Translations under genes and position numbers: made by a program
Shown: positions 165-63,846 of the stretch, one piece after another
Position numbering within the stretch: position 1 is the first letter of the stretch
Layout of the letters: every line of letters begins with the position of its first letter
The notes under the pieces: generated by a model
Told to the model about the DNA's origin: nothing
What the model saw: only the letters and a program-made list of their open reading frames with translations
The model's database searches: none
DNA from: Patescibacteria group bacterium
GTDB taxonomy: Bacteria > Patescibacteriota > Minisyncoccia > Phycocordibacterales > UBA12079
Reading direction: 5' to 3'
DNA length: 64,000 nucleotides
Assembly: GCA_018817595.1 (NCBI GenBank)
Contig: JAHITU010000007.1
Coordinates: 8,775 to 72,774 of the forward strand

Positions 165-2471
165 ATGTATCTAAAATCTTTAGAAATAGTCGGTTTTAAA
201 TCCTTTGGTAAAAAGGCAAATTTGGAATTCAATTCTGATGTCTCTGCTATTGTGGGACCTAATGGTTCAGGAAAATCAAATGTGGCTGAAGCTTTTCGTT
301 TTGTTTTAGGTGAGCAATCCATTAAATCCATGCGAGGAAAAAGAGGAGAAGACCTAATCTTTAACGGGTCTCAAACAATTCCTCGAGGTAACCGAGCCAG
401 TGTCAAAATAGTTTTTGATAATTCTAAGAGATTTTTGAATCTGGATTTTGATGAAGTAATTATAGAAAGACATGTTCATAGAGATGGAACTAATCAATAT
501 TTTATCAATCGCTCTTCTGTGCGATTAAAAGATGTTTCAGAATTATTGGCAGGGGCTAATATTGGTTCTTCAGGTCATCATATGATTTCACAAGGAGAAG
601 CCGACAGAATTTTGAATGTTAATCCTAAGGAAAGAAGAATGATGATTGAGGAAGCTTTGGGCTTGAAAATCTATCAATATAAAAGAATCGCCAGTGAAAA
701 GAAATTAGACAAGGTTAAAGAAAATATTGATTCTGTGCAGGCTCTGAGAAAAGAAAATGCCCCTCATTTGAAATTCCTGAAAAGACAAATTGGTAAAATG
801 GAAAAGACTTTGGAAATGAGAAAAGAGTTAGGCACCTTATATCGTGAATATTTTAAAAGAGAAAGTGCTTATTTAAAATATTGGAGTGATAAAATCACCA
901 ATGAAAAAAATCCATTAATCGAAAAATTAAAAGATTTAGAACATAGGTCTCAAGAAGCTAAAGCTATTTTGGAAAAATCCCGTGCTGAAGATAAAAGACC
1001 TTTTGAATTAACAGATTTAAAAAACCAGCTGAATTCTCTAAGGAGAGAAAAAGATCAATTTACTTTTAAATTAGGCAGGGTAGAGGGGGTAATTTATGCC
1101 TTAGAGAATAAACCTAAGAAAATAGAAGAGGTTGATAATACAAAGATTTCCTTAAATAAAATTAAAGAATTAGAGTCCGTCATAAACGACCAGATAGAAA
1201 TCGCTTCTAATTTAGAAGAAGTAAACCAAATTAAAGGTATTTTAAATAGAATCAAAGAATCTTTTACTCAATTTATAGTTAAACACTCAATGGCTCAACA
1301 TCCGCCAGCTGGCGGAGAGCTGTTGAATAACGAGATTGATGAAAACTCTAAAAAGATTGAAGAGTTGAAAAATGAAAAGAAGCAAATAGAAGATTCAATA
1401 AAAGAGATAGAAAATAAAGAAGACATTGTTTTAGGGAAATATAACACTCTTAAATCAGAAATAGAACAGGATAAAAACTCAAACCAAGAAGCAGAATTGG
1501 CTGTTTTAGAAATTATGGCTCACCAGACTGAAAGTCGTTCTCAACTAAACTCTCTAGAAATGAAAGAGATTCAAATTGTTTCAGCTCAAGAGAATTATAA
1601 AAAAGAAATGAACGAATCATATATTTTGGCGGGTAGAGATGCTGTGCAATTTAAGGATTTAGATTTACATAATTCTGCAGGAGTAGTTTTGAGCGAGGAA
1701 GAAATTCTGAAAGAAGATAGACAATATCAAAATGAGAGATTGAAAAAAATAGAAAGAATCAAAATTCTTATCGAGGACTCAGGAACTCTTTCTAGTGAAG
1801 ATGTGGTTAAAGAATATGAAGAAGCCTCAAAAAGAGATGAGCACTTATCTAATGAGATTGAAGATTTAGAGAAATCAGCCGAATCATTATTAACTTTGAT
1901 TGAAGAGTTAAAGAAAAAATTAGATATTGAATTCAGAAACGGTTTAGAAAAGATTAATGCTCAATTTAAAGAGTTCTTTATTTTAATGTTTGGAGGAGGA
2001 AGAGCTAATTTAGATTTAGTAAAGGAAAAAGTAACTAGAAAAAAGAAAGACGATTTGAATATGAGTGAGGAAGACTTGGTTAATGAAGTTGAAAACGCAG
2101 ATGGAGAAGACAATGAGATGGGGATTGAAGTAGATGTGTCCTTACCTAATAAAAAAGTAAAAGGTTTACAAATGTTATCAGGCGGGGAGAGGTCTTTGAC
2201 TTCAATTGCTTTGTTGTTTGCTATGTCTCAAGTCACTCCACCCCCCTTTATTATTCTTGATGAAACCGATGCTGCCTTAGATGAAGCCAACTCTAGAAAA
2301 TACGGAGATATGATTGAAAGACTTTCCTCTCATTCACAGTTAATTTTAATTACTCATAATCGAGAAACCATGGCGCGAGCTAATATACTATACGGAGTAA
2401 CCATGGGTTCTGACGGAATCTCAAAATTACTTTCTGTTGAATTTGCCGAAGCAGTAAAGGTAGCAAAATAA
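165..2471 (+). CDS. smc: SMC-like chromosome segregation ATPase (short form)
   Basis: N-terminal Walker A GPNGSGKSN, long coiled-coil middle, C-terminal ABC signature LSGGERSLTSIALLFA and Walker B ILDETDAALD. The ORF opens at 144 but the conserved MYLKSLEIxGFKSF start is at 165. Confidence 0.8.
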   Translation: MYLKSLEIVGFKSFGKKANLEFNSDVSAIVGPNGSGKSNVAEAFRFVLGEQSIKSMRGKRGEDLIFNGSQTIPRGNRASVKIVFDNSKRFLNLDFDEVIIERHVHRDGTNQYFINRSSVRLKDVSELLAGANIGSSGHHMISQGEADRILNVNPKERRMMIEEALGLKIYQYKRIASEKKLDKVKENIDSVQALRKENAPHLKFLKRQIGKMEKTLEMRKELGTLYREYFKRESAYLKYWSDKITNEKNPLIEKLKDLEHRSQEAKAILEKSRAEDKRPFELTDLKNQLNSLRREKDQFTFKLGRVEGVIYALENKPKKIEEVDNTKISLNKIKELESVINDQIEIASNLEEVNQIKGILNRIKESFTQFIVKHSMAQHPPAGGELLNNEIDENSKKIEELKNEKKQIEDSIKEIENKEDIVLGKYNTLKSEIEQDKNSNQEAELAVLEIMAHQTESRSQLNSLEMKEIQIVSAQENYKKEMNESYILAGRDAVQFKDLDLHNSAGVVLSEEEILKEDRQYQNERLKKIERIKILIEDSGTLSSEDVVKEYEEASKRDEHLSNEIEDLEKSAESLLTLIEELKKKLDIEFRNGLEKINAQFKEFFILMFGGGRANLDLVKEKVTRKKKDDLNMSEEDLVNEVENADGEDNEMGIEVDVSLPNKKVKGLQMLSGGERSLTSIALLFAMSQVTPPPFIILDETDAALDEANSRKYGDMIERLSSHSQLILITHNRETMARANILYGVTMGSDGISKLLSVEFAEAVKVAK

Positions 2472-2526
2472 TTTTCAAAAATTTATTTATTATTATTAAA
2501 TAATAATAAATAAAATAATCAATTAA

Positions 2527-2564
2527 ATTATATTATACGATTATATATAATCGTATAATATAAT
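2527..2564. promoter_or_regulatory. perfect palindrome ATTATATTATACGATTATATATAATCGTATAATATAAT upstream of the ArsR paralog; putative operator
   Basis: Dyad symmetry checked base by base. The 30-bp core recurs exactly at 2903-2932, downstream of the gene. Confidence 0.5.
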
Positions 2565-2598
2565 AAATAATAATTATTAAAATAATAAATAAATTAGT

Positions 2599-2892
2599 AT
2601 GAAATTTACAGGGAAACAAATAAAATTGCTAGAGCTTTTTTCAAAAGCTCTAGCAAACAAAAATAGAATTAAAATTTTAATTTTAATAAATGAAAAACCG
2701 AAACTAAATGTGGTGAGTATAGCTGATAATTTAAAAATGAATTATCAATCAGTAGCTGTTCACACTCAGAGATTAGAAAAGGTAGGTTTTATACATAAAA
2801 GATATAAAGGTTTGTTAATGGAACATATAATTACTGAAAGAGGAAAACATTTTTTGATTTCATTTCAAAAAGTTTTAAATCTAAAATCTTAA
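2599..2892 (+). CDS. ArsR/SmtB-family winged-HTH transcriptional regulator (paralog 1)
   Basis: 97 aa, HTH core like the second paralog at 28340-28633. Flanked by two copies of a perfect 30-bp palindrome. Confidence 0.7.
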   Translation: MKFTGKQIKLLELFSKALANKNRIKILILINEKPKLNVVSIADNLKMNYQSVAVHTQRLEKVGFIHKRYKGLLMEHIITERGKHFLISFQKVLNLKS

Positions 2893-2902
2893 CATAAGTA
2901 TT

Positions 2903-2932
2903 TATTATACGATTATATATAATCGTATAATA
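2903..2932. promoter_or_regulatory. second copy of the 30-bp palindrome TATTATACGATTATATATAATCGTATAATA
   Basis: Exact repeat of the core at 2531-2560. Confidence 0.5.
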
Positions 2933-3069
2933 GGTTTTTCAATAAATTTAAAAAACAAAGAAACAAATCTAATATTTTTTCAATTGTATTTATGGTTTTT
3001 TTATGATATTTTGAGGGTCAGGATGTTATTTAACTATTTTGAGTAAAAAACTTATAAAGGAGGTCAAGA

Positions 3070-3564
3070 ATGACCAATAACACATGTAGTGACGCAGGAA
3101 AAAAGGCAGGAGTGATTCGCGAGCTTTCAACTATAAATTCTCTGGATGAAAGAAGAACCAATATTCTTTTAGCTTTGATTAAGTATATCAAAGCCGGTTA
3201 TCCCATGGAAAATGGAAAAACATGGAAAAGGTTTTTTGGAAAGATCAGAGAGTGTTGGTTTTCTGAAAATCCTCTTAAAGTTTGGAAAAAACTTCTCACT
3301 AGCTCCAATTTCAAAAAATTGGATATCTGTGAAAGAAGACTTGTTCAGGAATCTTCACCTTTTGCTGATTGTTTCTTTATTTCTGTGGGGGATACTGTAG
3401 AGGGTTCAGCTCTAAGAGAAAATCTTCTCTGTTTTGCTGAACCTATTCTTGTTGAAGAAGTGAACGGTCACGGGAATAAACATTGCAATTTGAACGAATT
3501 GGTTTTTGTTGTTTCTGAAGATAATTTTGAAGGGAGTTTTTTAAATGTTACTCTTTTCATTTAA
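3070..3564 (+). CDS. hypothetical Cys-containing protein
   Basis: 164-aa ORF with strong RBS AAAGGAGGTCAAGAATG. No family recognised. Confidence 0.5.
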   Translation: MTNNTCSDAGKKAGVIRELSTINSLDERRTNILLALIKYIKAGYPMENGKTWKRFFGKIRECWFSENPLKVWKKLLTSSNFKKLDICERRLVQESSPFADCFFISVGDTVEGSALRENLLCFAEPILVEEVNGHGNKHCNLNELVFVVSEDNFEGSFLNVTLFI

Positions 3565-3575
3565 GTTTTTAGTCA

Positions 3576-3620
3576 AAAAGCACTGGTTACCGTTGTTACG
3601 GAACCAGTGCTTTTTATTTT
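3576..3620. terminator. bidirectional rho-independent terminator hairpin between the 3070 gene and rnr
   Basis: GCACTGGTTACCG...CGGAACCAGTGC stem followed by a T-run. Confidence 0.6.
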
Positions 3621-3626
3621 ATATTT

Positions 3627-5618
3627 TTATTCTGAAATCAATTCAAAATCGATTACTTGTTTGTCTAAATCAGTTTTGACTAATTTTACTCTAACCTTGT
3701 CTCCTAGGGTATGCTTTACCCTTGTTTTTTGTCCCACTAGGCGATAATGCTTAGTATCTAATTCATAGTAATCATCCTGAAGAGAACGAACACTAATCAT
3801 TCCTTCAGCTCCGTTTTCTGCTTGGACATACACACCCCATTTTGTAATTCCAGAAATAATTCCTTCGAATTCCTGACCAATTTTACTCGACATTAACTCT
3901 GTGAACTTATATTTCGTAGAAGCTCTTTCGGCTGTTACGGCTGCAATTTCTTGTTGAGTGGATTTGCTGGTTAATTCTTTGTATTTTTTAATAGAACGAG
4001 GAGAAAGATTTTTCCCTGCTAAATAATTTTTCATCAAACGATGCACCATCATATCAGGGTAACGACGAATAGGTGAAGTGAAGTGAGTATAATGTTTGAA
4101 TCCTAAACCAAAATGCCCAATATTTTGAGTCGAGTAAATTGCCTTTGCCATTGATTTAAGCATAGCCGTAGCAATCAAATCTTCTTCTGGCAAACCTTCA
4201 ATTTTCATTAATAAATCATTCAATTCTTTTGAAGAAACTTTATTATCTTTGATTTTTAAATTGAATCCAATAGTTTTTAGGAACTCTGACAATTCTTTCA
4301 ATTGTTCTGTTTTAGGTACATCGTGAATTCTATAAACAAAAGGTAATTGAATCTTCAGTTTTTCTTCTTGATGACTTATATATTGGGCTACTTCGCGATT
4401 AGCTAAAAGCATAAAGTCTTCAATTAACTCATTAGTATCCATCATTTGCTTTTCGTAAACATCAATAGCCTTTCCGGTTTTGTCCAAAATAAATTTGTAT
4501 TCGTTTGATCCAAAGGAAATAGAACCTTTTTCGGTTCTGTCAGCTCGGAGAATTAGAGCCAATTCATTCAAGGTATTTAATTCCTTATAGAATTCACCAG
4601 CTTTATTATCCAAGGTTTCTTGAGCATTTTTGTAGGTGAATCTTTTGTCAGAATGAATAATAGTTTCTCCAAACCATCTAGCTTTTACTTGTGCATTTTT
4701 ATCTATTATGAAAACAGCAGAATAAGTCAATTTGTCTTCATTAGGATTAAGAGAACATAGGTTATTAGAAAGCACTTCAGGAAGCATCGGAATCGTACGG
4801 TCTATTAGATAAACAGAGGTACATCTAACAGTAGCTTCACGGTCTATTGGGGAGTCAATAGGAACATAGTGGGTTACATCAGCGATATGAACTCCAATTT
4901 CATAATCCCCATTTTCTAATTCTTTGAACGATAAAGCATCATCAAAATCCTTGGCGTCATCAGGGTCGATAGTAAAAGTAATTCTGTCTCGCATATCCTT
5001 TCTCTTAGGAATTTCTTGAGCGAAGTCTTTTAGAGCTTGTTTGGATATAACTTCGGCTTCAGCTTCGACACCTTCTGGAAAATCAGGTTCAAAACCTTTT
5101 TCATAAAGAATAGCTTGCATTTCAGTTTCATTGTCACCCTTATGTCCGATTACTTTAATTATTTTTCCTTGAGGATTTTTCTTTGGGTCATTCCATTCAG
5201 ACATTTCAGCTACGATTTTTACATCATGGCTGGGGATTTCTCCATCACTAAGGTCTAGGTCTAAACGGGGGTAAAATTTAATATCATCGGCAACTAAAAA
5301 ATAACCTTCATTATCTTTTCCTAAGGTTCCTACAAATTTAGTTTTAACTCTGTTTAATATTTCAGTAACTTTGGCTATTTTAGTCCCTGCCTGCCGAGAG
5401 GCATGGTTTCCTCTTTTAGCTACTTTGATTTTTACTATATCTCCATTTAGAGCAGTATTCAAATCAAAGTCAGAAATTTCAAAATCTCCGTGTTCGGTTT
5501 TCAAGAAACCACGCTTTCTTGTGGTTACTATAATATTACCTTCATAAAATTCTTGCTCTTTATCTTGAGATTTTTTATGTTTCTTTTCATATGTCTTGTT
5601 TTTCTTCATACCCCACAT
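3627..5618 (-). CDS. rnr: ribonuclease R (RNB-domain 3'-5' exoribonuclease with C-terminal S1 domain)
   Basis: 663 aa. RNB catalytic core and a C-terminal S1-like segment GIISGITKWGVYVQ...GMISVRSL. Confidence 0.85.
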   Translation of the reverse strand: MWGMKKNKTYEKKHKKSQDKEQEFYEGNIIVTTRKRGFLKTEHGDFEISDFDLNTALNGDIVKIKVAKRGNHASRQAGTKIAKVTEILNRVKTKFVGTLGKDNEGYFLVADDIKFYPRLDLDLSDGEIPSHDVKIVAEMSEWNDPKKNPQGKIIKVIGHKGDNETEMQAILYEKGFEPDFPEGVEAEAEVISKQALKDFAQEIPKRKDMRDRITFTIDPDDAKDFDDALSFKELENGDYEIGVHIADVTHYVPIDSPIDREATVRCTSVYLIDRTIPMLPEVLSNNLCSLNPNEDKLTYSAVFIIDKNAQVKARWFGETIIHSDKRFTYKNAQETLDNKAGEFYKELNTLNELALILRADRTEKGSISFGSNEYKFILDKTGKAIDVYEKQMMDTNELIEDFMLLANREVAQYISHQEEKLKIQLPFVYRIHDVPKTEQLKELSEFLKTIGFNLKIKDNKVSSKELNDLLMKIEGLPEEDLIATAMLKSMAKAIYSTQNIGHFGLGFKHYTHFTSPIRRYPDMMVHRLMKNYLAGKNLSPRSIKKYKELTSKSTQQEIAAVTAERASTKYKFTELMSSKIGQEFEGIISGITKWGVYVQAENGAEGMISVRSLQDDYYELDTKHYRLVGQKTRVKHTLGDKVRVKLVKTDLDKQVIDFELISE

Positions 5619-7777: not shown

Positions 7778-7945
7778 GAATTAAGATTTAAGATTTAGGA
7801 ATTAAAAATAATGAAGAAAAATTTGCGACTAAAACATTTTAAAAAATGTTCGTCCAACCAAAACTGTGTTTTGGTTTAGGAAGCAAATTCTTCTTCAAAA
7901 AGCTAACACCTAATCCGCCAGCTGGCGGACTAAACAACTAATAAA

Positions 7946-8278: not shown

Positions 8279-10012
8279 ATGAAAAAATCAAGTTTTTTAT
8301 TTAGAATAAAATTTTTGTATGCAGGTTTATTCCTGTTTTTCTTTATTTTAGTTGGTCAATTATATATGATTCAAATAGTTAAGGGTGATGAATATAGTGA
8401 AAAAGCCGACAATCAATATATTAAACCTCAGTATATTTTCAATCGAGGAAATATTTATTTTGAAGATAAAAATGGAAAAAGAATTTCTGCTGCTATGACT
8501 CGCTCAGGTTTCCAATTAACTATTAATCCTTCTTTGATTGAGGATGCAGAAGGCACCTTTAACAAATTATCTCAAATAATAGAAATAGACAAAGAAGACT
8601 TTATGTATCGAGCTGGGAAAAAAGATGATACTTATGAGGTAATAAAAAGACAAATTATAGACGATAAAATATCAAAACAAATAAAAGATTTAAAATTAAA
8701 AGGGGTTACTCTTGAATTAGATAAGTGGCGTTTCTACCCAGGAGATAAATTAGCTTCTCATGTTTTAGGTTTTGTTGGTTACAACGAAGATTCTCTTGAA
8801 GGAATTTATGGAGTGGAAAAATATTATAATTATATATTAAACAGAGAATCAAAAAATCTTTTTGTGAACTTTTTTGCAGAGATTTTTTTGAATGTGAATT
8901 CTGTTATTGATGGAGACGACTCAAAAAAAGAAGGAGATATTGTTTTAACTATAGAACCTACTGTGCAAGAATACTTAGAAACTACATTAGAAGACTTGGA
9001 AGAAAAATGGAGTACTGATTTGGCAGGTGGAATTATAATAGACCCCAATAACGGAGAAATAATCGCTATGGGTTTTTCTCCTTCTTTTGATCCAAATAAT
9101 TTTTCTAAAGCTAAAGATGGAGTGCTTTTTGGAAATCCTATGGTGGAATCTGTATATGAAATGGGTTCTATTATTAAAGCCTTGACCATGGCTATTGGTT
9201 TAGACACTGGTGTGGTTACTGCAGAGACCACCTACAATGACACTGGTTTTAAAACCTTGAATGGAAAGACTTTTTATAATTATGATGGAAAAGCCAGAGG
9301 GGTGGTTCCTATGCAAGAAGTTCTAAATCAGTCTTTGAATATTGGCGCAGCCTTTGTCGAAAACAAAATAGGAAATGAAAGATTTGCAAAATACCTTTTG
9401 GATTTAGGTATCGGGGAAGAAACGGGAATTGATTTACCTAATGAAACTTATGGTTTGGTTTCTAATTTAGAATCCACTCGAGATATTGAATATGCTACTG
9501 CGTCATTTGGACAAGGAATAGCTATGACTCCAATAGAGACAGTTAAAGCTTTATCAGCTTTGGCTAATGGAGGAGTCCTAATAACTCCGCATTTAGTTAA
9601 AGAAATAAAATATAGTGTTTTATCTTCTGATGAAATATCGTATGATGATAATGAAAGGATTTTTAAAGAAGAGACTTCTGATGAAATCAGTCGAATGTTA
9701 GTTCAGGTTGTGGATGAAGCATTGTTAGGAGGAACAGTAAAATCTGAAGATTATACTATCGCCGCTAAGACAGGAACCGCTCAGATGGCAAAGGAAGACG
9801 GAAGAGGGTATTATGATGATAAGTATCTACACAGTTTTTTCGGCTATTTCCCAGCTACTCGTCCTGAGTTTTTAACATTTTTATATGTTGTGGACCCAAA
9901 GAATGTAAATTATGCCTCTCATACTTTAACACAGCCCTTTATGGACATTTTTAAATTTTTAGTTAATTATTATGAAGTGGTACCCGACAGAGTCGGAGTC
10001 GAAAGTCTGTAA
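8279..10012 (+). CDS. ftsI: penicillin-binding protein 2/3 transpeptidase (FtsI-like)
   Basis: SXXK (SIIKAL), SFGQG and KTGTA motifs. N-terminal TM. Confidence 0.85.
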   Translation: MKKSSFLFRIKFLYAGLFLFFFILVGQLYMIQIVKGDEYSEKADNQYIKPQYIFNRGNIYFEDKNGKRISAAMTRSGFQLTINPSLIEDAEGTFNKLSQIIEIDKEDFMYRAGKKDDTYEVIKRQIIDDKISKQIKDLKLKGVTLELDKWRFYPGDKLASHVLGFVGYNEDSLEGIYGVEKYYNYILNRESKNLFVNFFAEIFLNVNSVIDGDDSKKEGDIVLTIEPTVQEYLETTLEDLEEKWSTDLAGGIIIDPNNGEIIAMGFSPSFDPNNFSKAKDGVLFGNPMVESVYEMGSIIKALTMAIGLDTGVVTAETTYNDTGFKTLNGKTFYNYDGKARGVVPMQEVLNQSLNIGAAFVENKIGNERFAKYLLDLGIGEETGIDLPNETYGLVSNLESTRDIEYATASFGQGIAMTPIETVKALSALANGGVLITPHLVKEIKYSVLSSDEISYDDNERIFKEETSDEISRMLVQVVDEALLGGTVKSEDYTIAAKTGTAQMAKEDGRGYYDDKYLHSFFGYFPATRPEFLTFLYVVDPKNVNYASHTLTQPFMDIFKFLVNYYEVVPDRVGVESL

Positions 10013-12293: not shown

Positions 12294-13160
12294 TTAACCC
12301 CTAACCCTAATCTTTCCTAAAGATTGAGAAATTAATCCTTTGATTTCCATTGAGGATAGAAGAATATTTATTTGGCTAGTGGGTAAATTCAATTCTTGAA
12401 TTAACTCATCCCTCGTTTTAGGTTCACGGATATTTTCTAAGATAAGCTTTTCTTCTTTTGAGCAATCGTTAAACCTCATTTCTAATTGCTGAGAGGTGTC
12501 TAATAAATCAAAGCCCAAAACTTGGAGTAAGTCCTGACTAGAATTAATAGGAGTGGCTCCTTCGTTTAATAATCGATTAGAACCCTTGGAGTAAAGGGAA
12601 AAAACAGAATTAGGCACAGCGCAAAGTTCTCGATTATAATCCAATGCCAGACGAGCAGTAATTAAAGTGCCTGATTTTTCGGTGGCTTCAATAACCAAAG
12701 TGGCTTTAGCTAAGCCAGCCATAATTCTATTTCTTTGAGGAAAAGTCCACGGTGCCGCTCCTTGGTTTGGTTCGTATTCTGATAATAAAGTCCCTCCTGA
12801 TTTCAATATTTTTTCAGCCAAGGGTAGATTCGATTTTGGATAAAGAACTTTTCTATCCAACCCTGACCCAGGTACAGCCATAGTATTCAGTCTATTTTCT
12901 AGGGCCGAGTTATGAGCAATAGCATCAATGCCTAAAGCCAAACCAGAAACAATCGTAATATCGTAGCCTTTTAGCCCTGCAATTAATTTCTCACAAACTT
13001 CTTTTCCGTATTGAGAATATTTACGAGAACCCACCACAGTTAAAAAAACAGAATCCCAATTAGGTTTCATTCCAATATAATACAATTGCTCAGGAGCATC
13101 GTTCATTTCCAAAATATTCTCTGACCAATCTTCTTTTTTTAATTTTAATATTTCTTCCAC
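12294..13160 (-). CDS. dprA: DNA processing protein DprA (Smf)
   Basis: GSRKYSQYG...VSGLALGIDAIAH Rossmann-like DprA core. Confidence 0.85.
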   Translation of the reverse strand: MEEILKLKKEDWSENILEMNDAPEQLYYIGMKPNWDSVFLTVVGSRKYSQYGKEVCEKLIAGLKGYDITIVSGLALGIDAIAHNSALENRLNTMAVPGSGLDRKVLYPKSNLPLAEKILKSGGTLLSEYEPNQGAAPWTFPQRNRIMAGLAKATLVIEATEKSGTLITARLALDYNRELCAVPNSVFSLYSKGSNRLLNEGATPINSSQDLLQVLGFDLLDTSQQLEMRFNDCSKEEKLILENIREPKTRDELIQELNLPTSQINILLSSMEIKGLISQSLGKIRVRG

Positions 13161-25736: not shown

Positions 25737-25840
25737 GCCCTTGTAGTTCAATGGATAGTCGCCTCATCGGCGACCCGCCGAAGAGGCGGGAACAAGACTT
25801 CTTTGAATTCATAATTTAAAGTATCTTCTTACTAAAATTT
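25737..25840 (+). repeat. partial 5' copy of tRNA-Arg (nt 1-22) fused to a GC-rich hairpin and a copy of nt 23-31, immediately upstream of the intact tRNA
   Basis: GCCCTTGTAGTTCAATGGATAG equals the first 22 nt of the tRNA at 25841. The hairpin CGCCTCATCGGCG ACC CGCCGAAGAGGCG also occurs at 5641-5675. Confidence 0.6.
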
Positions 25841-25912
25841 GCCCTTGTAGTTCAATGGATAGAACAAGACACTCCTAACGTCTAGATCTAGGTTCGATTC
25901 CTGGCAAGGGCA
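25841..25912 (+). tRNA. tRNA-Arg (anticodon CCT)
   Basis: Cloverleaf folded by hand: acceptor GCCCTTG/CAAGGGC, D-stem GTTC/GAAC, anticodon loop CTCCTAA, T-loop TTCGATT, no encoded CCA. Confidence 0.85.
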
Positions 25913-26116
25913 CAAAAGGAGAAATCAGTAGCGATCTAGCTACTGATTTTTCTTTTCTTTTGTAGGTCTTGCCAGGAATCGAAAGACGGAGGCGCGAAGC
26001 CAATTTGTGAGCTTGCGAACAAATTGAAGCCGAGTTCGGGTCGAAGGTTCTTATTAAAATTTGAGCTTACGAAAAATTTTAATTAGAAACCTGTGACCGA
26101 TTCCTGGCAAGGGCAC
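25913..26116 (+). ncRNA. conserved structured element trailing tRNA-Arg; ends in a direct copy of the tRNA 3' end and holds an inverted copy internally
   Basis: Terminator hairpin, inverted CTTGCCAGGAATCG, conserved CGAAAGACGGAGGCGCGAAGCC...GCCGAGTTCGGGTCGAAG...TTTGAGC...GAAAAA...AATTAG core, then GACCGATTCCTGGCAAGGGCAC. The same architecture follows the Phe, Glu and Gln tRNAs. Confidence 0.6.
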
Positions 26117-26640: not shown

Positions 26641-26645
26641 TTTAA

Positions 26646-26936
26646 AAAACAGCTAAAAAGCTGTTTTTTATTTTGTGCTGAGGGGCGGGCTCGGTCACGA
26701 ATCACTAAGTCTTTTATTTCGCCCTGCCTACCCCTGCGCGCCGGCAGGCGTGGACAGGCGTGGGCAGGCAGGTTCGCTCATAAAAAACAAAGTGTTCTCA
26801 ACCCCGTCTCGGCTTTTTCTTTTGCTTCGCTCCAGAAAATAGACCTGTGACTTTCGAGCCCGCACGAAAGCAAAGAAGTTTGCTTTCTCCTTCATCCCAA
26901 AATAAAAAAACAGCTAAAAAGCTGTTTTTTATTTTG
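26646..26936 (-). ncRNA. tRNA-Phe trailing structured element (minus strand) carrying an extra GC-rich repeat insert
   Basis: On the minus strand it reads tRNA, terminator, conserved core (GCCGAGACGGGGTTGAGAACACTTTG...ACTTAGTGATTCGTGACCGAGCCCGCCCCTCAGCACA), then a second copy of the terminator hairpin. It contains the GCCCCTGCGCGCCGGCAGG-type GC-rich block. Confidence 0.6.
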
Positions 26937-27009
26937 TGCTGAGGGGCGGGCTCGAACCGCCGACCCTTCGCTCTTCAGGCGAATGCTCTACCAACTGAGC
27001 TACCTCAGC
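26937..27009 (-). tRNA. tRNA-Phe (anticodon GAA)
   Basis: The reverse complement folds as GCTGAGG TA GCTC AGTTGGTA GAGC A TTCGC CTGAAGA GCGAA ... TTCGAGC ... CCTCAGC A. Confidence 0.9.
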
Positions 27010-27232
27010 ATATTTTATTTTTCTACCTACTGAGCCTGTCTGCCGGTGAGACAGGCAACCTCAGCATATTGATATTTATATATCATACCTTATTTATAGA
27101 TTTTTTCAATAATATTTACAAAAATTACATTTGCAAAAAATTTGAAAAAGTTATATTCTAAAAACTAGAAAATAACTTGTAAATTTACATAGACCAAATA
27201 ATCAGATTCTTAGAATTTGAGAGGAGGTTGTT

Positions 27233-32611: not shown

Positions 32612-33721
32612 ATGAATACAACACTTATATATGTTTTTATTATTGTCTTTTTAGTTTTAGTAAACGGAGTTTTCCTGTGGTTTATTTATAATCTTGTAAA
32701 AAAAGGACAGGAAGATAAAAATGAAGGGCAAAACGAAAATGCTTTTTCGCTTTTACAAAACCAAATGAACGAATTGAATAAAACTCTTGATTCAAAGATA
32801 GGGGAGTCTTCAAAATTGATGAGCGAATCAGTTAAAACTCAGTTTGGGGAATCTCAAAGATTGATGAATGACATAGCAAATAATTCACAAAAAATTATCA
32901 AAGATGTAACCGAGAAAATGACAGAAATTAAAGAAACCAATAAACAAGTTTTTGGAATGACTGAACAGCTTCAGAATTTGGAAAAAGTTTTAAAAAATCA
33001 AAAACAAAGAGGAAGTTTAGGGGAAGCTGGTTTAGATTTAATTTTAAGTAATATTCTTCCTCCTACTGCTTATCAAATGCAATATTCTTTTGCAGATGGA
33101 GATATCGTAGACGCCGTAATACACACAAAGGACGGCATTATTCCTGTAGATGCAAAATTTTCTTTAGATAATTATAATCGAGTAGTTAATGAGGATGATG
33201 AAAATAGAAAATTAATTTTAGAAAAAGAATTTACCAATGATTTAAAAAAGAGGATTGATGAGACTTCAAAATATATAAAAATAAAAGAAGGAACTTTGCC
33301 TTTTGCTATTATGTATATTCCAGCCGAAGCTATTTACTATGACTTATTAGTGAATGAGGTAGGTTCTATAAAAATAAATACAAAGTCTCTTATTGAATAC
33401 GCCTATAGAGATAGAAAAGTAATTATCGTTTCCCCTACAACTTTTGTGGCTTATTTAAATACAATTTTGCAAGGGTTCAAGGCTTTTAAAGTTGAAGAAT
33501 CAGCTAAAGAAATAATTAAAAATGTAGAAAAATTACAGGCTCATATTAAAGCTTACGATTCTTACCATACAAAATTAGGAGCTTCCTTGGCGACTACAGT
33601 AAATCACTTTAATACTTCTCGTAAAGAATTAGGAAAGATAGATAAAGATGTTTATAGAATTACAGGGGATTCTGCTGAAATTGAGCCTTTATTGATAGAA
33701 AAGCCTGATAAGGAAGAGTAA
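32612..33721 (+). CDS. rmuC: DNA recombination protein RmuC
   Basis: N-terminal TM, coiled-coil, C-terminal RmuC nuclease-like domain. Confidence 0.8.
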   Translation: MNTTLIYVFIIVFLVLVNGVFLWFIYNLVKKGQEDKNEGQNENAFSLLQNQMNELNKTLDSKIGESSKLMSESVKTQFGESQRLMNDIANNSQKIIKDVTEKMTEIKETNKQVFGMTEQLQNLEKVLKNQKQRGSLGEAGLDLILSNILPPTAYQMQYSFADGDIVDAVIHTKDGIIPVDAKFSLDNYNRVVNEDDENRKLILEKEFTNDLKKRIDETSKYIKIKEGTLPFAIMYIPAEAIYYDLLVNEVGSIKINTKSLIEYAYRDRKVIIVSPTTFVAYLNTILQGFKAFKVEESAKEIIKNVEKLQAHIKAYDSYHTKLGASLATTVNHFNTSRKELGKIDKDVYRITGDSAEIEPLLIEKPDKEE

Positions 33722-46906: not shown

Positions 46907-47263
46907 ATTGGCTCTATCGTCTAACGGTTATTGGAATTAAAAGCAAATTTCTTTGCTTTTAATCCGGTTCTGAGCGATAGCGAAGAAATGACCGATGTTT
47001 ACGAGGTCATAGGATAAGCCTTCGTTGAAGGCGATGTCTTTGAAATATAGCAGACAATGTTAATTTAAAATATAATATATAGTAATGGCCTTATCGTCTA
47101 ATGGTTATTGGAATTAAAAGCAAATTTCTTTGCTTTTAATCCGGTTCTGAGCGATAGCGAAGAAATGACCGATGTTTACGAGGTCATAGGATAAGCCTTC
47201 GTTGAAGGCGATGTCTTTGAAATATAGTAGACAATGTTAATTTAAAATATAATATATAGTAAT
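46907..47263 (+). repeat. two tandem 181-bp units, each starting with a copy of tRNA-Glu nt 1-22, directly upstream of the intact tRNA-Glu
   Basis: Units at 46907-47087 and 47088-47263 are about 98% identical. Each holds GGC(T/C)(C/T)TATCGTCTAA(C/T)GGTTA plus inverted copies of tRNA segments (GAAGGCGATGTC is the reverse complement of tRNA GACATCGCCTTC). Confidence 0.7.
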
Positions 47264-47335
47264 GGCCTTATCGTCTAATGGTTAGGACATCGCCTTCTCA
47301 AGGCGGCAATCCGGGTTCGATTCCCGGTAAGGTCA
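47264..47335 (+). tRNA. tRNA-Glu (anticodon CTC)
   Basis: Acceptor GGCCTTA/TAAGGTC, D-stem GTCT/GGAC, anticodon loop TTCTCAA, T-loop TTCGATT. Confidence 0.85.
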
Positions 47336-47518
47336 CAAATCAAAAATAACAGTCTTTCTGACTGTTATTTTTTGATTCTAGTGAATCTCCTGTGGAGATA
47401 ATCGAAGGTCGGAAGAAAATCCGAGATTTTCTGAGACGGGGTCGAGAACACTTTGTAAAATTTGAGCAAAGCGAAAAATTTTACTTAGTGATTCGTGATC
47501 GATTCCCGGTAAGGTCAC
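47336..47518 (+). ncRNA. conserved structured element trailing tRNA-Glu; ends in a direct copy of the tRNA 3' end
   Basis: Terminator, CGAAGGTCGGAAGAAAATCC...GAGACGGGGTCGAGAACACTTTG...TTTGAGCAAAGCGAAAAA...ACTTAGTGATTCGTGATCGATTCCCGGTAAGGTCAC. Confidence 0.6.
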
Positions 47519-47811
47519 AAAAAACAAAAACCTACACTTTATCGACCGTCAATAAAGTGTAGGTTTTTGTTTTGTTTTGCAAAAAGTAGGGGTAGCACCC
47601 CTACTTTTTAAATTATAAGATATTGTTGAAAAACTTCATAATTTCTTTATTTTTTCTTTACTGAAACTTCATAATAAATATGTATAAATTTGTAATTAGT
47701 GTGTTCTTACAGAAATGAAAGGAGGTGATATACTATTCTTTTGAGAGTTATCTTAGTAAATATTTTTTCACTAAATTTAAACCTAAATTAAAAAAGACCT
47801 AGGAGGTCAAA

Positions 47812-51748: not shown

Positions 51749-51954
51749 AAGAAAACCACCGAACCTATCCTTGCGGAACGCAGTGATAAACACTACAGTT
51801 TGGTTCGGTGGCACTTCCTTAATTGAAACTATAACATTTTATATCAAAAAATCAAGTAAACTGTGGATAACTAAAACATTGTAAATAAAATTTAAATTAG
51901 CTCTAAAAGAGCAGAACGGCTCAACGACTTGAGCTATTTAAAATAAATGAAAAT

Positions 51955-63136: not shown

Positions 63137-63207
63137 TGCCGGATCGTCTAATGGTAGGACACTGGTTTTTGGTACCAGCGATCGGGGTTCGAGTCCCTGT
63201 CCGGCAA
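63137..63207 (+). tRNA. tRNA-Gln (anticodon TTG)
   Basis: Acceptor TGCCGGA/TCCGGCA, D-stem GTCT/GGAC, anticodon stem CTGGT/ACCAG with loop TTTTGGT, T-loop TTCGAGT. Confidence 0.8.
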
Positions 63208-63612
63208 CTATAAAAATAAAGACACTAGAATGAATATTCTAGTGTCTTTATTTTTATTTGTCCGGCAGGGGCTCGAAAGACGAAGGCTGCGAAGCCAGTT
63301 TTTCGAAGAAAAACTGTAGCCGAGTCGGGGTCGCGAGTACTTATTATTTTTGAGTGCGAAGCACGAAAAAAATAATTAGTAACTCGTGACCGAGTCCCTG
63401 TCCGGCAACATATAAAATATAGACCCTAAAGCACTAGCTTTAGGGTCTATATTTTATTTGTCGGACAGGGACTTGAAACGAGCGAAATATATTTTTCTGA
63501 AGCGTTAGCGGAAGAAAAATTTGAGTGAGCAGGGTCGCGAGTTCTTAATAGAATTGAGTCCGTAGGACGAAAATTATATTTAGAACTGGAGACCGAGTCC
63601 CTGTAAAACAAC
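63208..63612 (+). ncRNA. two tandem copies of the tRNA-trailing structured element, each ending in a copy of the tRNA-Gln 3' end
   Basis: Copy 1 runs to about 63409 (…AATTAGTAACTCGTGACCGAGTCCCTGTCCGGCAAC). Copy 2 runs to about 63612 (…GAGACCGAGTCCCTGTAAAACAAC). Each has a terminator hairpin and an inverted TGTCCGGCAGGGGCTCG / TGTCGGACAGGGACTTG. Confidence 0.6.
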
Positions 63613-63846
63613 ATGATTAAATAACCCTAAAGCACTAGCTTTAGGGTCTATATTTAATATCCATCTACTATCACAGGTTCGAACCTGTGTGATGTTTAAT
63701 ATGGTTGGGTAGGGAATAGGTTTTGAAAACTAGTTAGTTAAAGAGAAATTATTGCATTAAATTTTAAAATGCGTTGCTATTTTTTTAGTAAGAGTGTATT
63801 TTATTAATAGATAGTTCGTTCAAATAAATCACTTAAGAGGTGTCCT

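Follow-up and report, generated by a model that had tools for sequence, protein, structure and literature searches.

What kind of sequence follows a tRNA gene, folds back on itself and closes with a second copy of the 3′ end of that same tRNA? The question is raised by a 64-kb stretch of DNA (hereafter the window; positions 8,775 to 72,774 of contig JAHITU010000007.1 in assembly GCA_018817595.1, a Patescibacteria group bacterium), a piece of bacterial chromosome with a G+C content of 31% and housekeeping genes. A preliminary description, made from the letters alone, had pointed to one common layout behind its four tRNA genes. We found that each of these genes is trailed by the same protein-less insertion of about 190 nt, and that tRNA-Gln is followed by a second, tandem unit. 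We consider it slightly favored (probability of about 55%) that the insertion belongs to a family of non-coding, non-autonomous mobile insertions of about 180-215 bp that home to the 3′ part of tRNA and transfer-messenger RNA (tmRNA) genes in Patescibacteria of the Paceibacteria type.

Anatomy and folding of the insertion

The four tRNA genes, on which ARAGORN and Rfam agree, are tRNA-Arg(CCT) at 25841-25913 (+ strand; Rfam RF00005, 64.5 bits), tRNA-Phe(GAA) at 26936-27009 (− strand), tRNA-Glu(CTC) at 47264-47336 (+ strand) and tRNA-Gln(TTG) at 63137-63208 (+ strand). Here we call X the segment of a tRNA from a junction J, usually C56 of the T-loop, to its 3′ end, and X′ the exact reverse complement of X. 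The unit then runs in the order X, hairpin or terminator, X′ and a conserved core of 105-115 nt that ends in GTGAY, and a second X lies after the unit. This layout was confirmed by reading the sequence, by aligning the five downstream regions (Arg, Phe, Glu, and the two tandem regions Gln1 and Gln2) and by a covariance model. The model was built from 72 copies, which included only Gln1 and Arg from the window, with Phe and Glu outside the training set. It matched the 64 kb at exactly five places, all of them directly behind the four tRNA genes (Gln1 107.5 bits, Arg 96.8, Phe 91.6, Glu 90.5 and Gln2 47.8), and the next-best match in the window, on the reverse strand of Gln1, scored 21.9 bits. 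A two-block pattern derived from the conserved blocks occurred three times in the window, against 0.00 expected occurrences in shuffled sequence.

In the Arg unit (+ strand), X is the last 18 nt of tRNA-Arg, from T-loop C56 to the discriminator (25896-25913). A terminator-like hairpin of 18 pairs follows at 25915-25956, and then X′, CTTGCCAGGAATCG, at 25968-25981, which is complementary to tRNA-Arg positions 56-69 and provides the 5′ strand of a helix, P1. The core (25982-26097; covariance-model match 25970-26109, E = 4e-23) consists of J1/2 (AAAG), a helix P2 of 3 bp with an internal loop and a variable hairpin, the dinucleotide GG and a long irregular hairpin, P3, and ends in GTGAC. The displaced 3′ segment (26098-26116) repeats the tRNA from C56 to the discriminator plus one base, with 19 of 19 positions identical.

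The Phe unit lies on the − strand, with its core and P1 at 26682-26866. Its P3 hairpin carries a G+C-rich insertion of about 50 nt (~26720-26772), and an optional hairpin, P0, precedes the core (26867-26888). The direct copy at 26644-26693 takes in the tRNA-Phe 3′ end, the trailer and the terminator (about 50 nt identical to 26906-26955), leaving two identical terminators. The Glu unit (+ strand; core and P1 at 47393-47511) has a short P2, and its direct copy of the tRNA-Glu 3′ end (47500-47521), 22 nt identical, is followed by a different terminator.

Behind tRNA-Gln (all + strand), X (63190-63207), a hairpin and X′ (63258-63275) form one long palindrome at 63190-63275, with an RNA folding energy of -87.3 kcal/mol (z = -10.8). 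The Gln1 core at 63276-63390 ends in GTGAC (covariance-model match 63264-63402; fold z = -8.95) and is followed at 63391-63409 by a first direct copy of the tRNA-Gln 3′ end, which doubles as the X of the second unit. This degenerate tandem unit, Gln2, has its own X′ (63458-63475), a core with P1 at 63464-63605 (E = 2e-10) and a second, decayed direct copy at 63595-63613 (CGAGTCCCTGTAAAACAAC). The terminator after the decayed copy (63624-63647) is close in sequence to the terminator of unit 2. Just past this third tRNA-Gln 3′ end lies a perfect palindrome, CACAGGTTCGAACCTGTG (63672-63689), centred on the T-loop-like GGTTCGAACC.

Some details of the layout first proposed needed to be corrected. 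The terminator-like hairpin and the inverted copy had been given as separate parts; both are present, but the tRNA 3′ end, the trailer, the hairpin and X′ often fuse into one long palindrome, as in Gln1. A direct copy of the last ~20 nt of the tRNA describes Arg (19 nt) and Glu (22 nt), whereas in Phe and Gln2 the repeat continues through the whole terminator (~50-65 nt). The closing helix exists, but it is reliably just ~8-12 bp long rather than 14 bp.

Analysis of the 72 distinct copies with RNAalifold folded the core as a three-way junction. In P1 the inverted copy pairs with the direct copy (GGATTCG/CGAATCC plus tRNA-specific pairs). P2 comprises three pairs and, beyond a conserved internal loop that is asymmetric (RNA opposite GA), the variable hairpin; two unpaired G follow. 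P3 is the long irregular hairpin (GGTCG-M-GAGTAC-TTAG ... CTTAG-TAACTC-G-TGACC), and the final C of its 3′ strand is C56 of the downstream copy. Standard pairs made up 95.8%, compared with 29-40% when the 3′ partner was slid by 1-3 columns. The compensatory hairpin changes noticed at first sight are real: 19 of 31 base pairs were changed on both sides, the covariation score was 0.464 against 0.06-0.08 in the slid structures, and none of 500 shuffles reached the observed values. One pair, for example, was AU in 25 copies, CG in 24, GC in 17 and UA in 4, and another was UA in 36 and CG in 36. A single G.U pair was invariant in 72 of 72 sequences. On the opposite strand it would be an A.C mismatch, and therefore the fold belongs to the tRNA strand only. 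The core is thus a real, strand-specific fold, of either RNA or single-stranded DNA.

The loops lean slightly towards DNA as the folding strand. In 210 cores the apical loops were mostly C-GNA-G triloops (GCGNAGC 110 against 8.3 expected; GCGAAGC 58 against 2.2), and neither GNRA loops closed by GC stems (5 against 4.8) nor UUCG (3 against 4.1) were enriched. Minihairpins of the d(GCGAAGC) type are exceptionally stable as DNA, so that the dominance of these triloops points in that direction. The hairpin between the two arms most often had the loop CTGC (49 of 212 upstream regions), well ahead of every other loop. No promoter-like site was found between terminator and core in the window; any transcript of the core would therefore be a read-through of the tRNA.

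The fold was not recognized by existing models. At gathering thresholds Rfam 15 matched only the tRNAs and an unrelated DUF3800-IX RNA in the window, and relaxed scans of the Arg/Phe and Gln regions gave only noise, including for self-cleaving ribozymes, group I and II introns, HEARO and IS605-orfB omega RNAs. Hammerhead, K-turn and group II domain V structures were compared by eye and rejected, their junction sequences and internal loop being a poor fit, and a group I intron in the T-loop was rejected on the uninterrupted tRNA, the missing terminal G and the lack of an RF00028 match. The element was described in no Rfam family and in no article found by full-text search. As a candidate for a new family of structured RNA or single-stranded DNA, the core has strong support.

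The arms were expected to be tailored to each host tRNA, and both X′ and the direct copy indeed match their own tRNA. X′ belongs to the element: an inverted match of at least 9 nt to the last 18 nt of the tRNA was present at 54% of the tRNAs with a core and at 23% of those without. Its rarity at core-less tRNAs also led us to reject an origin of X′ as an ancestral long terminator. X′ pairs better with the functional tRNA at 30 loci and with the downstream copy at 15, with 26 ties, and pairing was perfect (19/19) at several loci. At 25 of 28 G.U pairs in well-formed acceptor and T stems, X′ carried the Watson-Crick complement of the 3′ strand (43 to 1 in a looser count). Consequently, identity wobble pairs such as G3.U70 of tRNA-Ala are not reproduced (for example at locus L084), and a direct copy of the tRNA 5′ strands, as in a collapsed tRNA gene, was rejected because X′ follows the 3′-strand complement at these positions. 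To judge from the sequences, such an exact complement is what a polymerase would write. The length of X′ and how well the downstream copy is preserved were not significantly related (rho = -0.16, p = 0.14). Snap-back at the terminator, considered as a general origin of X′, is weakened by units without a central hairpin and by many fresh copies with a short X′.

The preliminary description had further proposed that the closing helix mimics the acceptor/T-arm minihelix of the tRNA. As a conserved feature this did not hold. Pairing of X′ with the tRNA 3′ strand was 83-100% at positions 56-63 and fell to 49-21% at positions 71-74, the wobble partner was replaced as described, one class of junctions leaves only about 4 nt of tRNA at the acceptor end (see below), and the T-loop is replaced by the core. 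In some members an extra P0 hairpin, GCAAGCAAACTGCTTTGCTTGC-like, stands between the acceptor-complement and the T-stem-complement.

Occurrence and junctions outside the window

Copies beyond the window had been anticipated, and exact-pattern scans found them at a minimum of 237 further loci, at least 117 in genomes and at least 120 in metagenomes. One genome per species was scanned, and a base other than C was required after GTGAY in the scan of metagenome contigs. These counts are minimum values, and with exact patterns as the query the sample favours copies close to the consensus. Among the matches listed, all displayed genome records were Patescibacteria-group metagenome-assembled genomes (MAGs), labelled, as deposited, Paceibacteria/Parcubacteria, Kaiser-, Yonath-, Nomura-, Taylor- and Lloydbacteria, with some Saccharibacteria or only “bacterium”.

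In the genome loci the core lies about 100-130 nt behind a tRNA on the same strand, and the sequence past GTGAY repeats the host tRNA from C56, often over 19-22 nt and sometimes over 33-39 nt; at other loci it is decayed. The best-preserved downstream copies are identical at 22/22 positions, and others are decayed or interrupted. In one locus (L040, minus orientation, ~7880-7935) a 44-nt insertion with a 5-bp duplication (CCCTG) sits inside the downstream tRNA-Gln copy, indicating that some “decayed” copies are really interrupted ones. The spacing of the two tRNA-segment copies, which is the unit length, was tightly 180-215 nt in more than 100 loci.

The carrier tRNAs span all 20 amino-acid types, and tmRNA genes carry the element as well, as confirmed by Rfam. 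It had been asked whether every tRNA carries one. This is true of the window (4 of 4), but not elsewhere: only 14 of 73 additional tRNAs on the same loci (~19%) were occupied when the triggering tRNA of each match was excluded. Among 161 strong cores, 135 started at most 150 nt from the end of a tRNA or tmRNA, 17 were second or third members of tandem arrays, and 9 lay 0.6-6 kb away from the tRNA, with unrelated genes in between. Within arrays, the better-preserved copy may be the proximal or the distal one.

The junction was fixed relative to the core, immediately after GTGAY, and variable relative to the tRNA (tRNA positions were deduced from the ARAGORN coordinates together with the T-loop motif). 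T-loop junctions fell at positions ~54-59 (GTGAC|TTCGA, |TCGA, |CGA and |AAATCC). A second class lay near the acceptor end, at ~70-72, with GTGAC|ACAA behind tRNA-Glu, |GACA behind tRNA-Lys and GTGAT|ACAC behind tRNA-Ala, and in this class only about 4 nt of tRNA follow the core. One tRNA-Glu is followed by a tandem of both classes. Whatever the class, the sequence that adjoins the core on its 5′ side was the reverse complement of that past the junction, and the direct repeats ranged from 4 to ~65 nt.

Mobility and the rival explanations

Several of these features suggest that the element moves. Tandem arrays, decayed copies, tmRNA targets, varying junctions and the clustering of cores by genome point to a non-autonomous mobile insertion. 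With regard to the last, cores behind different tRNA types in the same genome had an identity of 0.73 (12 pairs), compared with 0.657 for the same tRNA type in other genomes (227 pairs) and 0.638 for unrelated core pairs (within-genome excess, p = 3e-5). In fresh copies, the tRNA end on the element side is usually followed by a hairpin unlike that after the displaced copy, and at some loci the displaced copy is followed by CCA and the functional gene is not. These differences fit Campbell-type insertion of an element with its own 3′ end and terminator better than simple target duplication.

We propose that the free form would be a folded single strand (DNA or RNA): pairing of X′ with X would yield a rod, with the hairpin closing one end and the core the other. 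In sequence, the X′:X duplex would equal the targeted part of the tRNA gene. At J, the base of the core immediately 3′ of GTGAY, strands might be exchanged with the chromosomal gene, and insertion would follow in Campbell fashion. The X and the hairpin of the element would then complete and terminate the tRNA, so that the gene would remain functional, and the chromosomal X would be displaced downstream, where it would decay. Repeated events could give the tandem arrays. With the T-loop sequence CGANTCC being universal, any tRNA or tmRNA might be entered. X and X′ would be re-copied from each new target, as suggested by the exact complement at wobble pairs together with the within-genome similarity of the cores, and the enzyme would act in trans.

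A more far-reaching version would make the element a gene-less, self-retargeting, rod-like single-stranded circle of ~190 nt, of DNA or RNA, whose core recruits a housekeeping enzyme or itself catalyses strand transfer at GTGAY|, with both arms rewritten for each new tRNA. We regard this version as speculative and on the whole unlikely. Such a self-contained circle, if true, would give the smallest bacterial genomes a class of replicon or insertion element of their own, one that is new, programmable and homes to tRNA genes. It is likewise doubtful that the element is categorically new in this gene-less, self-retargeting, single-stranded sense rather than a variant of a tRNA-homing insertion.

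As anticipated, the element encodes no recombinase. None was found in the unit, and the scanned window open reading frames (ORFs) of at least 120 aa yielded no integrase, transposase, reverse transcriptase, TnpB or HUH enzyme. The 134 ORFs neighbouring copies showed no enrichment of integrase, transposase, reverse transcriptase or TnpB; their genes are of the housekeeping kind, including Mur ligases, EF-Tu, the CCA-adding enzyme, MiaA, the clamp loader and others. The nine cores distant from a tRNA, examined as possible cargo-bearing “autonomous” copies, were rejected as such: the genes in between (an 819-aa ATPase and others) are unrelated and share no enzyme. In one of these loci (L085, minus orientation, 2391-4850), tRNA-Ser is separated from two tandem cores by a 3.6-kb island that encodes the 819-aa P-loop ATPase, possibly a gene of the defence type.

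Several points weigh against mobility. The within-genome core similarity is just 0.73, on 12 pairs. Nothing indicates a recent burst, and the cores of one genome could also have come to resemble each other by co-adaptation to a factor specific to that genome. No empty-site/filled-site polymorphism of the element was seen, either in contigs sharing a window protein or in an all-against-all comparison of the loci: the contigs encoding the window clamp-loader protein carried only 100% identical sequence (an ENA metagenome assembly), and the comparison of loci revealed no gain or loss of the element, although a separate polymorphic insertion of about 100 nt did appear (see below). Neither a free or circular form nor a candidate enzyme was found. 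The search pattern imposed the invariant columns GGGTCG, TTAG, GTGAY and CGA..CC but not the covarying ones. The conserved fold, with its 110 nt and an invariant wobble, exceeds what most mobile-element ends need and would fit a functional RNA, and with 4 of 4 tRNAs occupied in the window a use for the host is conceivable. Moreover, if recombination into a new tRNA type were conservative, its first product would be a chimeric tRNA, and the re-templating that would avoid this is hypothetical.

These points bear on the explanation that survives best after the mobile insertion, namely an RNA that serves the host. Here, read-through from the tRNA promoter would fold as a three-way junction closed by X′:X and act in tRNA biology, for example as a decoy for processing or CCA addition, as a substrate of RNase P or RNase Z, or as a switch between two X pairings. 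Besides the strand-specific covariation with its invariant G.U on the tRNA strand and the full occupancy in the window, it would account for the lack of a promoter between terminator and core, for the ability of X′ to pair with either X copy and for the placement of P0, in some members, where the D and anticodon arms leave a tRNA. The low occupancy elsewhere, the tandem and degenerate copies and the many decayed or interrupted downstream copies argue otherwise. So do the helix, which is least conserved at the acceptor end and loses the wobble identity pairs, the mere ~4 nt of tRNA after the core in the acceptor-end class, the terminator between tRNA and core, and the preponderance of C-GNA-G triloops over GNRA and UUCG loops. 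A dedicated tRNA-processing module thus fits less well than a mobile insertion, and we judge a host-serving RNA improbable.

We give still less credit to a retroelement, in which the core RNA would be copied by an unlinked reverse transcriptase in a target-primed reaction, with a precise first nick at J, a variable second nick and X′ made by snap-back or template switching. It would explain why the precise boundary adjoins the 3′ end of the folded strand while the other boundary of the repeat varies, why J lies in loop or end regions of the folded tRNA, why X′ is an exact complement of the polymerase type and why the repeats of Phe and Gln2 end with the terminator, the 3′ end of the primary transcript. 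However, no reverse transcriptase, which in a retron would adjoin the RNA gene, was present in the window or among the neighbouring ORFs, and group II introns are reported to be absent from Patescibacteria (PMC13011429). CCA was as frequent after the downstream copy as after real genes (9% in both) and the repeat often includes the genomic trailer, so that mature tRNA is not the template. A retroviral-type primer-binding site or a copy of mature tRNA was also rejected, X′ continuing into the complement of the genomic trailer and not of CCA. Finally, simple target duplication would predict the same hairpin after the two X copies, contrary to most fresh copies.

A guide RNA of an unlinked RNA-guided enzyme, with the core as scaffold and X′/X as programmable target segments, appears quite improbable. 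As in omega RNAs, a constant scaffold is directly followed by a target-matching segment of ~18-20 nt that varies with the tRNA. Nevertheless, no TnpB, IscB or IS110 gene was present in the scanned window ORFs or among the 134 neighbouring ones, and Rfam omega-RNA models were unmatched (the best, IS605-orfB-I, reached 14 bits against a gathering threshold of 94). The two “guides” are mutually complementary and would be sequestered in P1, only ~4 nt follow the scaffold in the acceptor-end class, and the frequent reprogramming that the within-genome spread implies is beyond what point mutation could achieve in 18-nt guides.

At L048 (119-1801 and 6170-7891), L008 and L102, islands with large serine recombinases are inserted in the same T-loops, those of tRNA-Ser or tRNA-Asn. 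Each island separates the tRNA from an older mini-element and has its own junction, ATAAGTTCGAA, followed by its own decayed tRNA 3′ copy upstream of the mini-element, which makes the islands separate insertions and independent users of the site. A large serine recombinase was for this reason rejected as parent or mobiliser. The serine-recombinase reading frames continue, antisense, through the tRNA or the core. A search of 2.9 million viral contigs (IMG/VR; plasmid collections were not searched) found no core: all 45 pattern hits were chance occurrences in coding sequence, with no profile match, and an origin as a phage attP was accordingly rejected. That the units are relics of integrase-borne islands or prophages, deleted down to attR-side arms, is therefore very improbable: although direct repeats of the tRNA 3′ end from the T-loop, tmRNA targets, the serine-recombinase islands themselves and a few cores with 0.6-6 kb of cargo would agree with it, those islands are separate insertions with a different junction, the unit length is tightly constrained in more than 100 loci, the core is missing from the viral contigs, and protein-binding att arms show no base-pair covariation.

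Compared with known systems, the element behaves most like tRNA-targeting integrative elements and their integrase-less derivatives and is closest in size to miniature inverted-repeat transposable elements (MITEs), and it fails defining features of each. tRNA and tmRNA genes are classical integration targets, and genomic islands and cis-mobilizable elements insert in their 3′ half with a T-loop junction and a replacement 3′ end. The present element shares with these the T-loop junction, the restored gene, the flanking direct repeat of the tRNA 3′ segment (Arg 19/19, Glu 22 nt, Phe ~50 nt) and tandem accretion. In contrast, it has no recombinase gene within its 180-215 bp and no cargo, it has a covarying core with an invariant wobble and an exact inverted target copy beside it, and its junction position (54-59 or ~70-72) and repeat length vary. 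The earlier view that this is not an att-type duplication is thus right in that no integrase is present, but it was put too strongly in view of the T-loop junction, the tRNA and tmRNA targets, the 3′ repeats, accretion and decay.

Like MITEs and other palindrome-associated elements, it is small, non-coding, multi-copy, self-folding and, if mobile, dependent on an enzyme in trans. An ordinary MITE had been named as the alternative, but the inverted arms are the sequence of each target tRNA rather than constant terminal repeats, no target duplication of fixed length is present, and the targets are restricted to tRNA and tmRNA genes. Integron attC sites and the attP hairpin of CTX phage, which mimics dif, are recombination substrates folded from a single strand. 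There, too, structure is kept over sequence, one strand folds, a stem reproduces the duplex site and arrays form. Differences are that no link of the element to IntI or Xer is shown, that its target is a tRNA gene and that it has an extra conserved three-way junction. With the omega RNAs of TnpB/IscB and the bridge RNA of IS110 it shares a scaffold at the element end joined directly to target-matching sequence; unlike them, it lacks an associated nuclease or recombinase gene and an Rfam match, and its sense and antisense target copies pair with each other. The linear mitochondrial plasmids kalilo and pAL2-1 insert with an inverted duplication of flanking target DNA, but they are eukaryotic organelle plasmids of several kb, with their own polymerases and long inverted repeats. 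Closest by host are the group I introns of Patescibacteria tRNA genes, which sit at position 35/36 of the anticodon loop, match the group I model and self-splice (PMC13011429). They too are selfish structured nucleic acids without a protein at tRNA genes of this phylum, whereas the element described here leaves the tRNA uninterrupted, is half the size and matches no intron model.

If the element is indeed a mobile insertion, a protein-less sequence survives in essential genes by supplying a replacement 3′ end and terminator. This poses the question of how both target-matching arms are rewritten for each new tRNA. Patescibacteria genomes are tiny. The element occupies a large share of the tRNA genes, yet neither the window nor the 134 neighbouring ORFs yielded a mobile-element gene. 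It accounts for partial “pseudo-tRNA” 3′ fragments and long palindromes in these MAGs, and its core could join libraries of the Rfam type. If an enzyme or catalysis were found, a target-copying scaffold with a fixed point of cleavage and joining would be of interest for programmable insertion.

Small elements and genes nearby

Other small repeats were observed around the same tRNA genes. Partial copies of the tRNA 5′ end lie upstream of the genes for Glu (47050-47228), Arg (25738-25840) and Phe (27010-27070), and also at L100, L194, L052, L198, L230 and L252; such copies were found at 34 of 288 tRNAs of the enlarged locus set. The Glu upstream copy takes in 35 nt of the promoter region. For Glu and Ser, a second conserved element of ~95 nt (...TCCGGTTCYGAGC...GAAATGRCCGRTG...GGYCATAGG) interrupts the D-loop of the upstream pseudo-copy after about position 21; from its sequence, it looks like a mirror-image family on the 5′ side. 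A recurrent small hairpin, AGCAAAYTNCTTTGCT-like with the loop CTGC, CTTC or TTTC, was present in the Phe unit, at the position of its P0, and upstream of tRNA-Glu (47116-47137). The same motif occurs in an insertion of ~100 nt at L250 (~560-655) and L267, which is absent from L252 (93-98% identical). As L252 is otherwise near-identical, this insertion must be a recent event. Despite the low G+C content of the genome, G+C-rich hairpin insertions were found in the D-loop of the upstream tRNA-Arg pseudo-copy (25760-25789) and in the upstream tRNA-Phe fragment (27035-27057), in addition to that in P3 of the Phe unit (26720-26772), and similar CCTGCCTGCCGGCAGGCAGG hairpins split 5′ tRNA copies at L110.

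Among the genes of the window are those for SMC, RNase R, PBP2, SerRS, GluRS, GroEL, MurJ, DnaE, a clamp-loader subunit, Dus, DprA, RmuC, ParB and ScpAB. DprA (12294-13160, − strand) acts in the uptake and processing of transforming DNA, and RmuC (32612-33721, + strand) belongs to a recombination-associated family. Both would be relevant if the element spreads by transformation and short-homology recombination. The DUF3800-IX RNA lies at 51751-51812 (− strand; 47.2 bits against a gathering threshold of 36.8), between ORFs of 211 and 225 aa.

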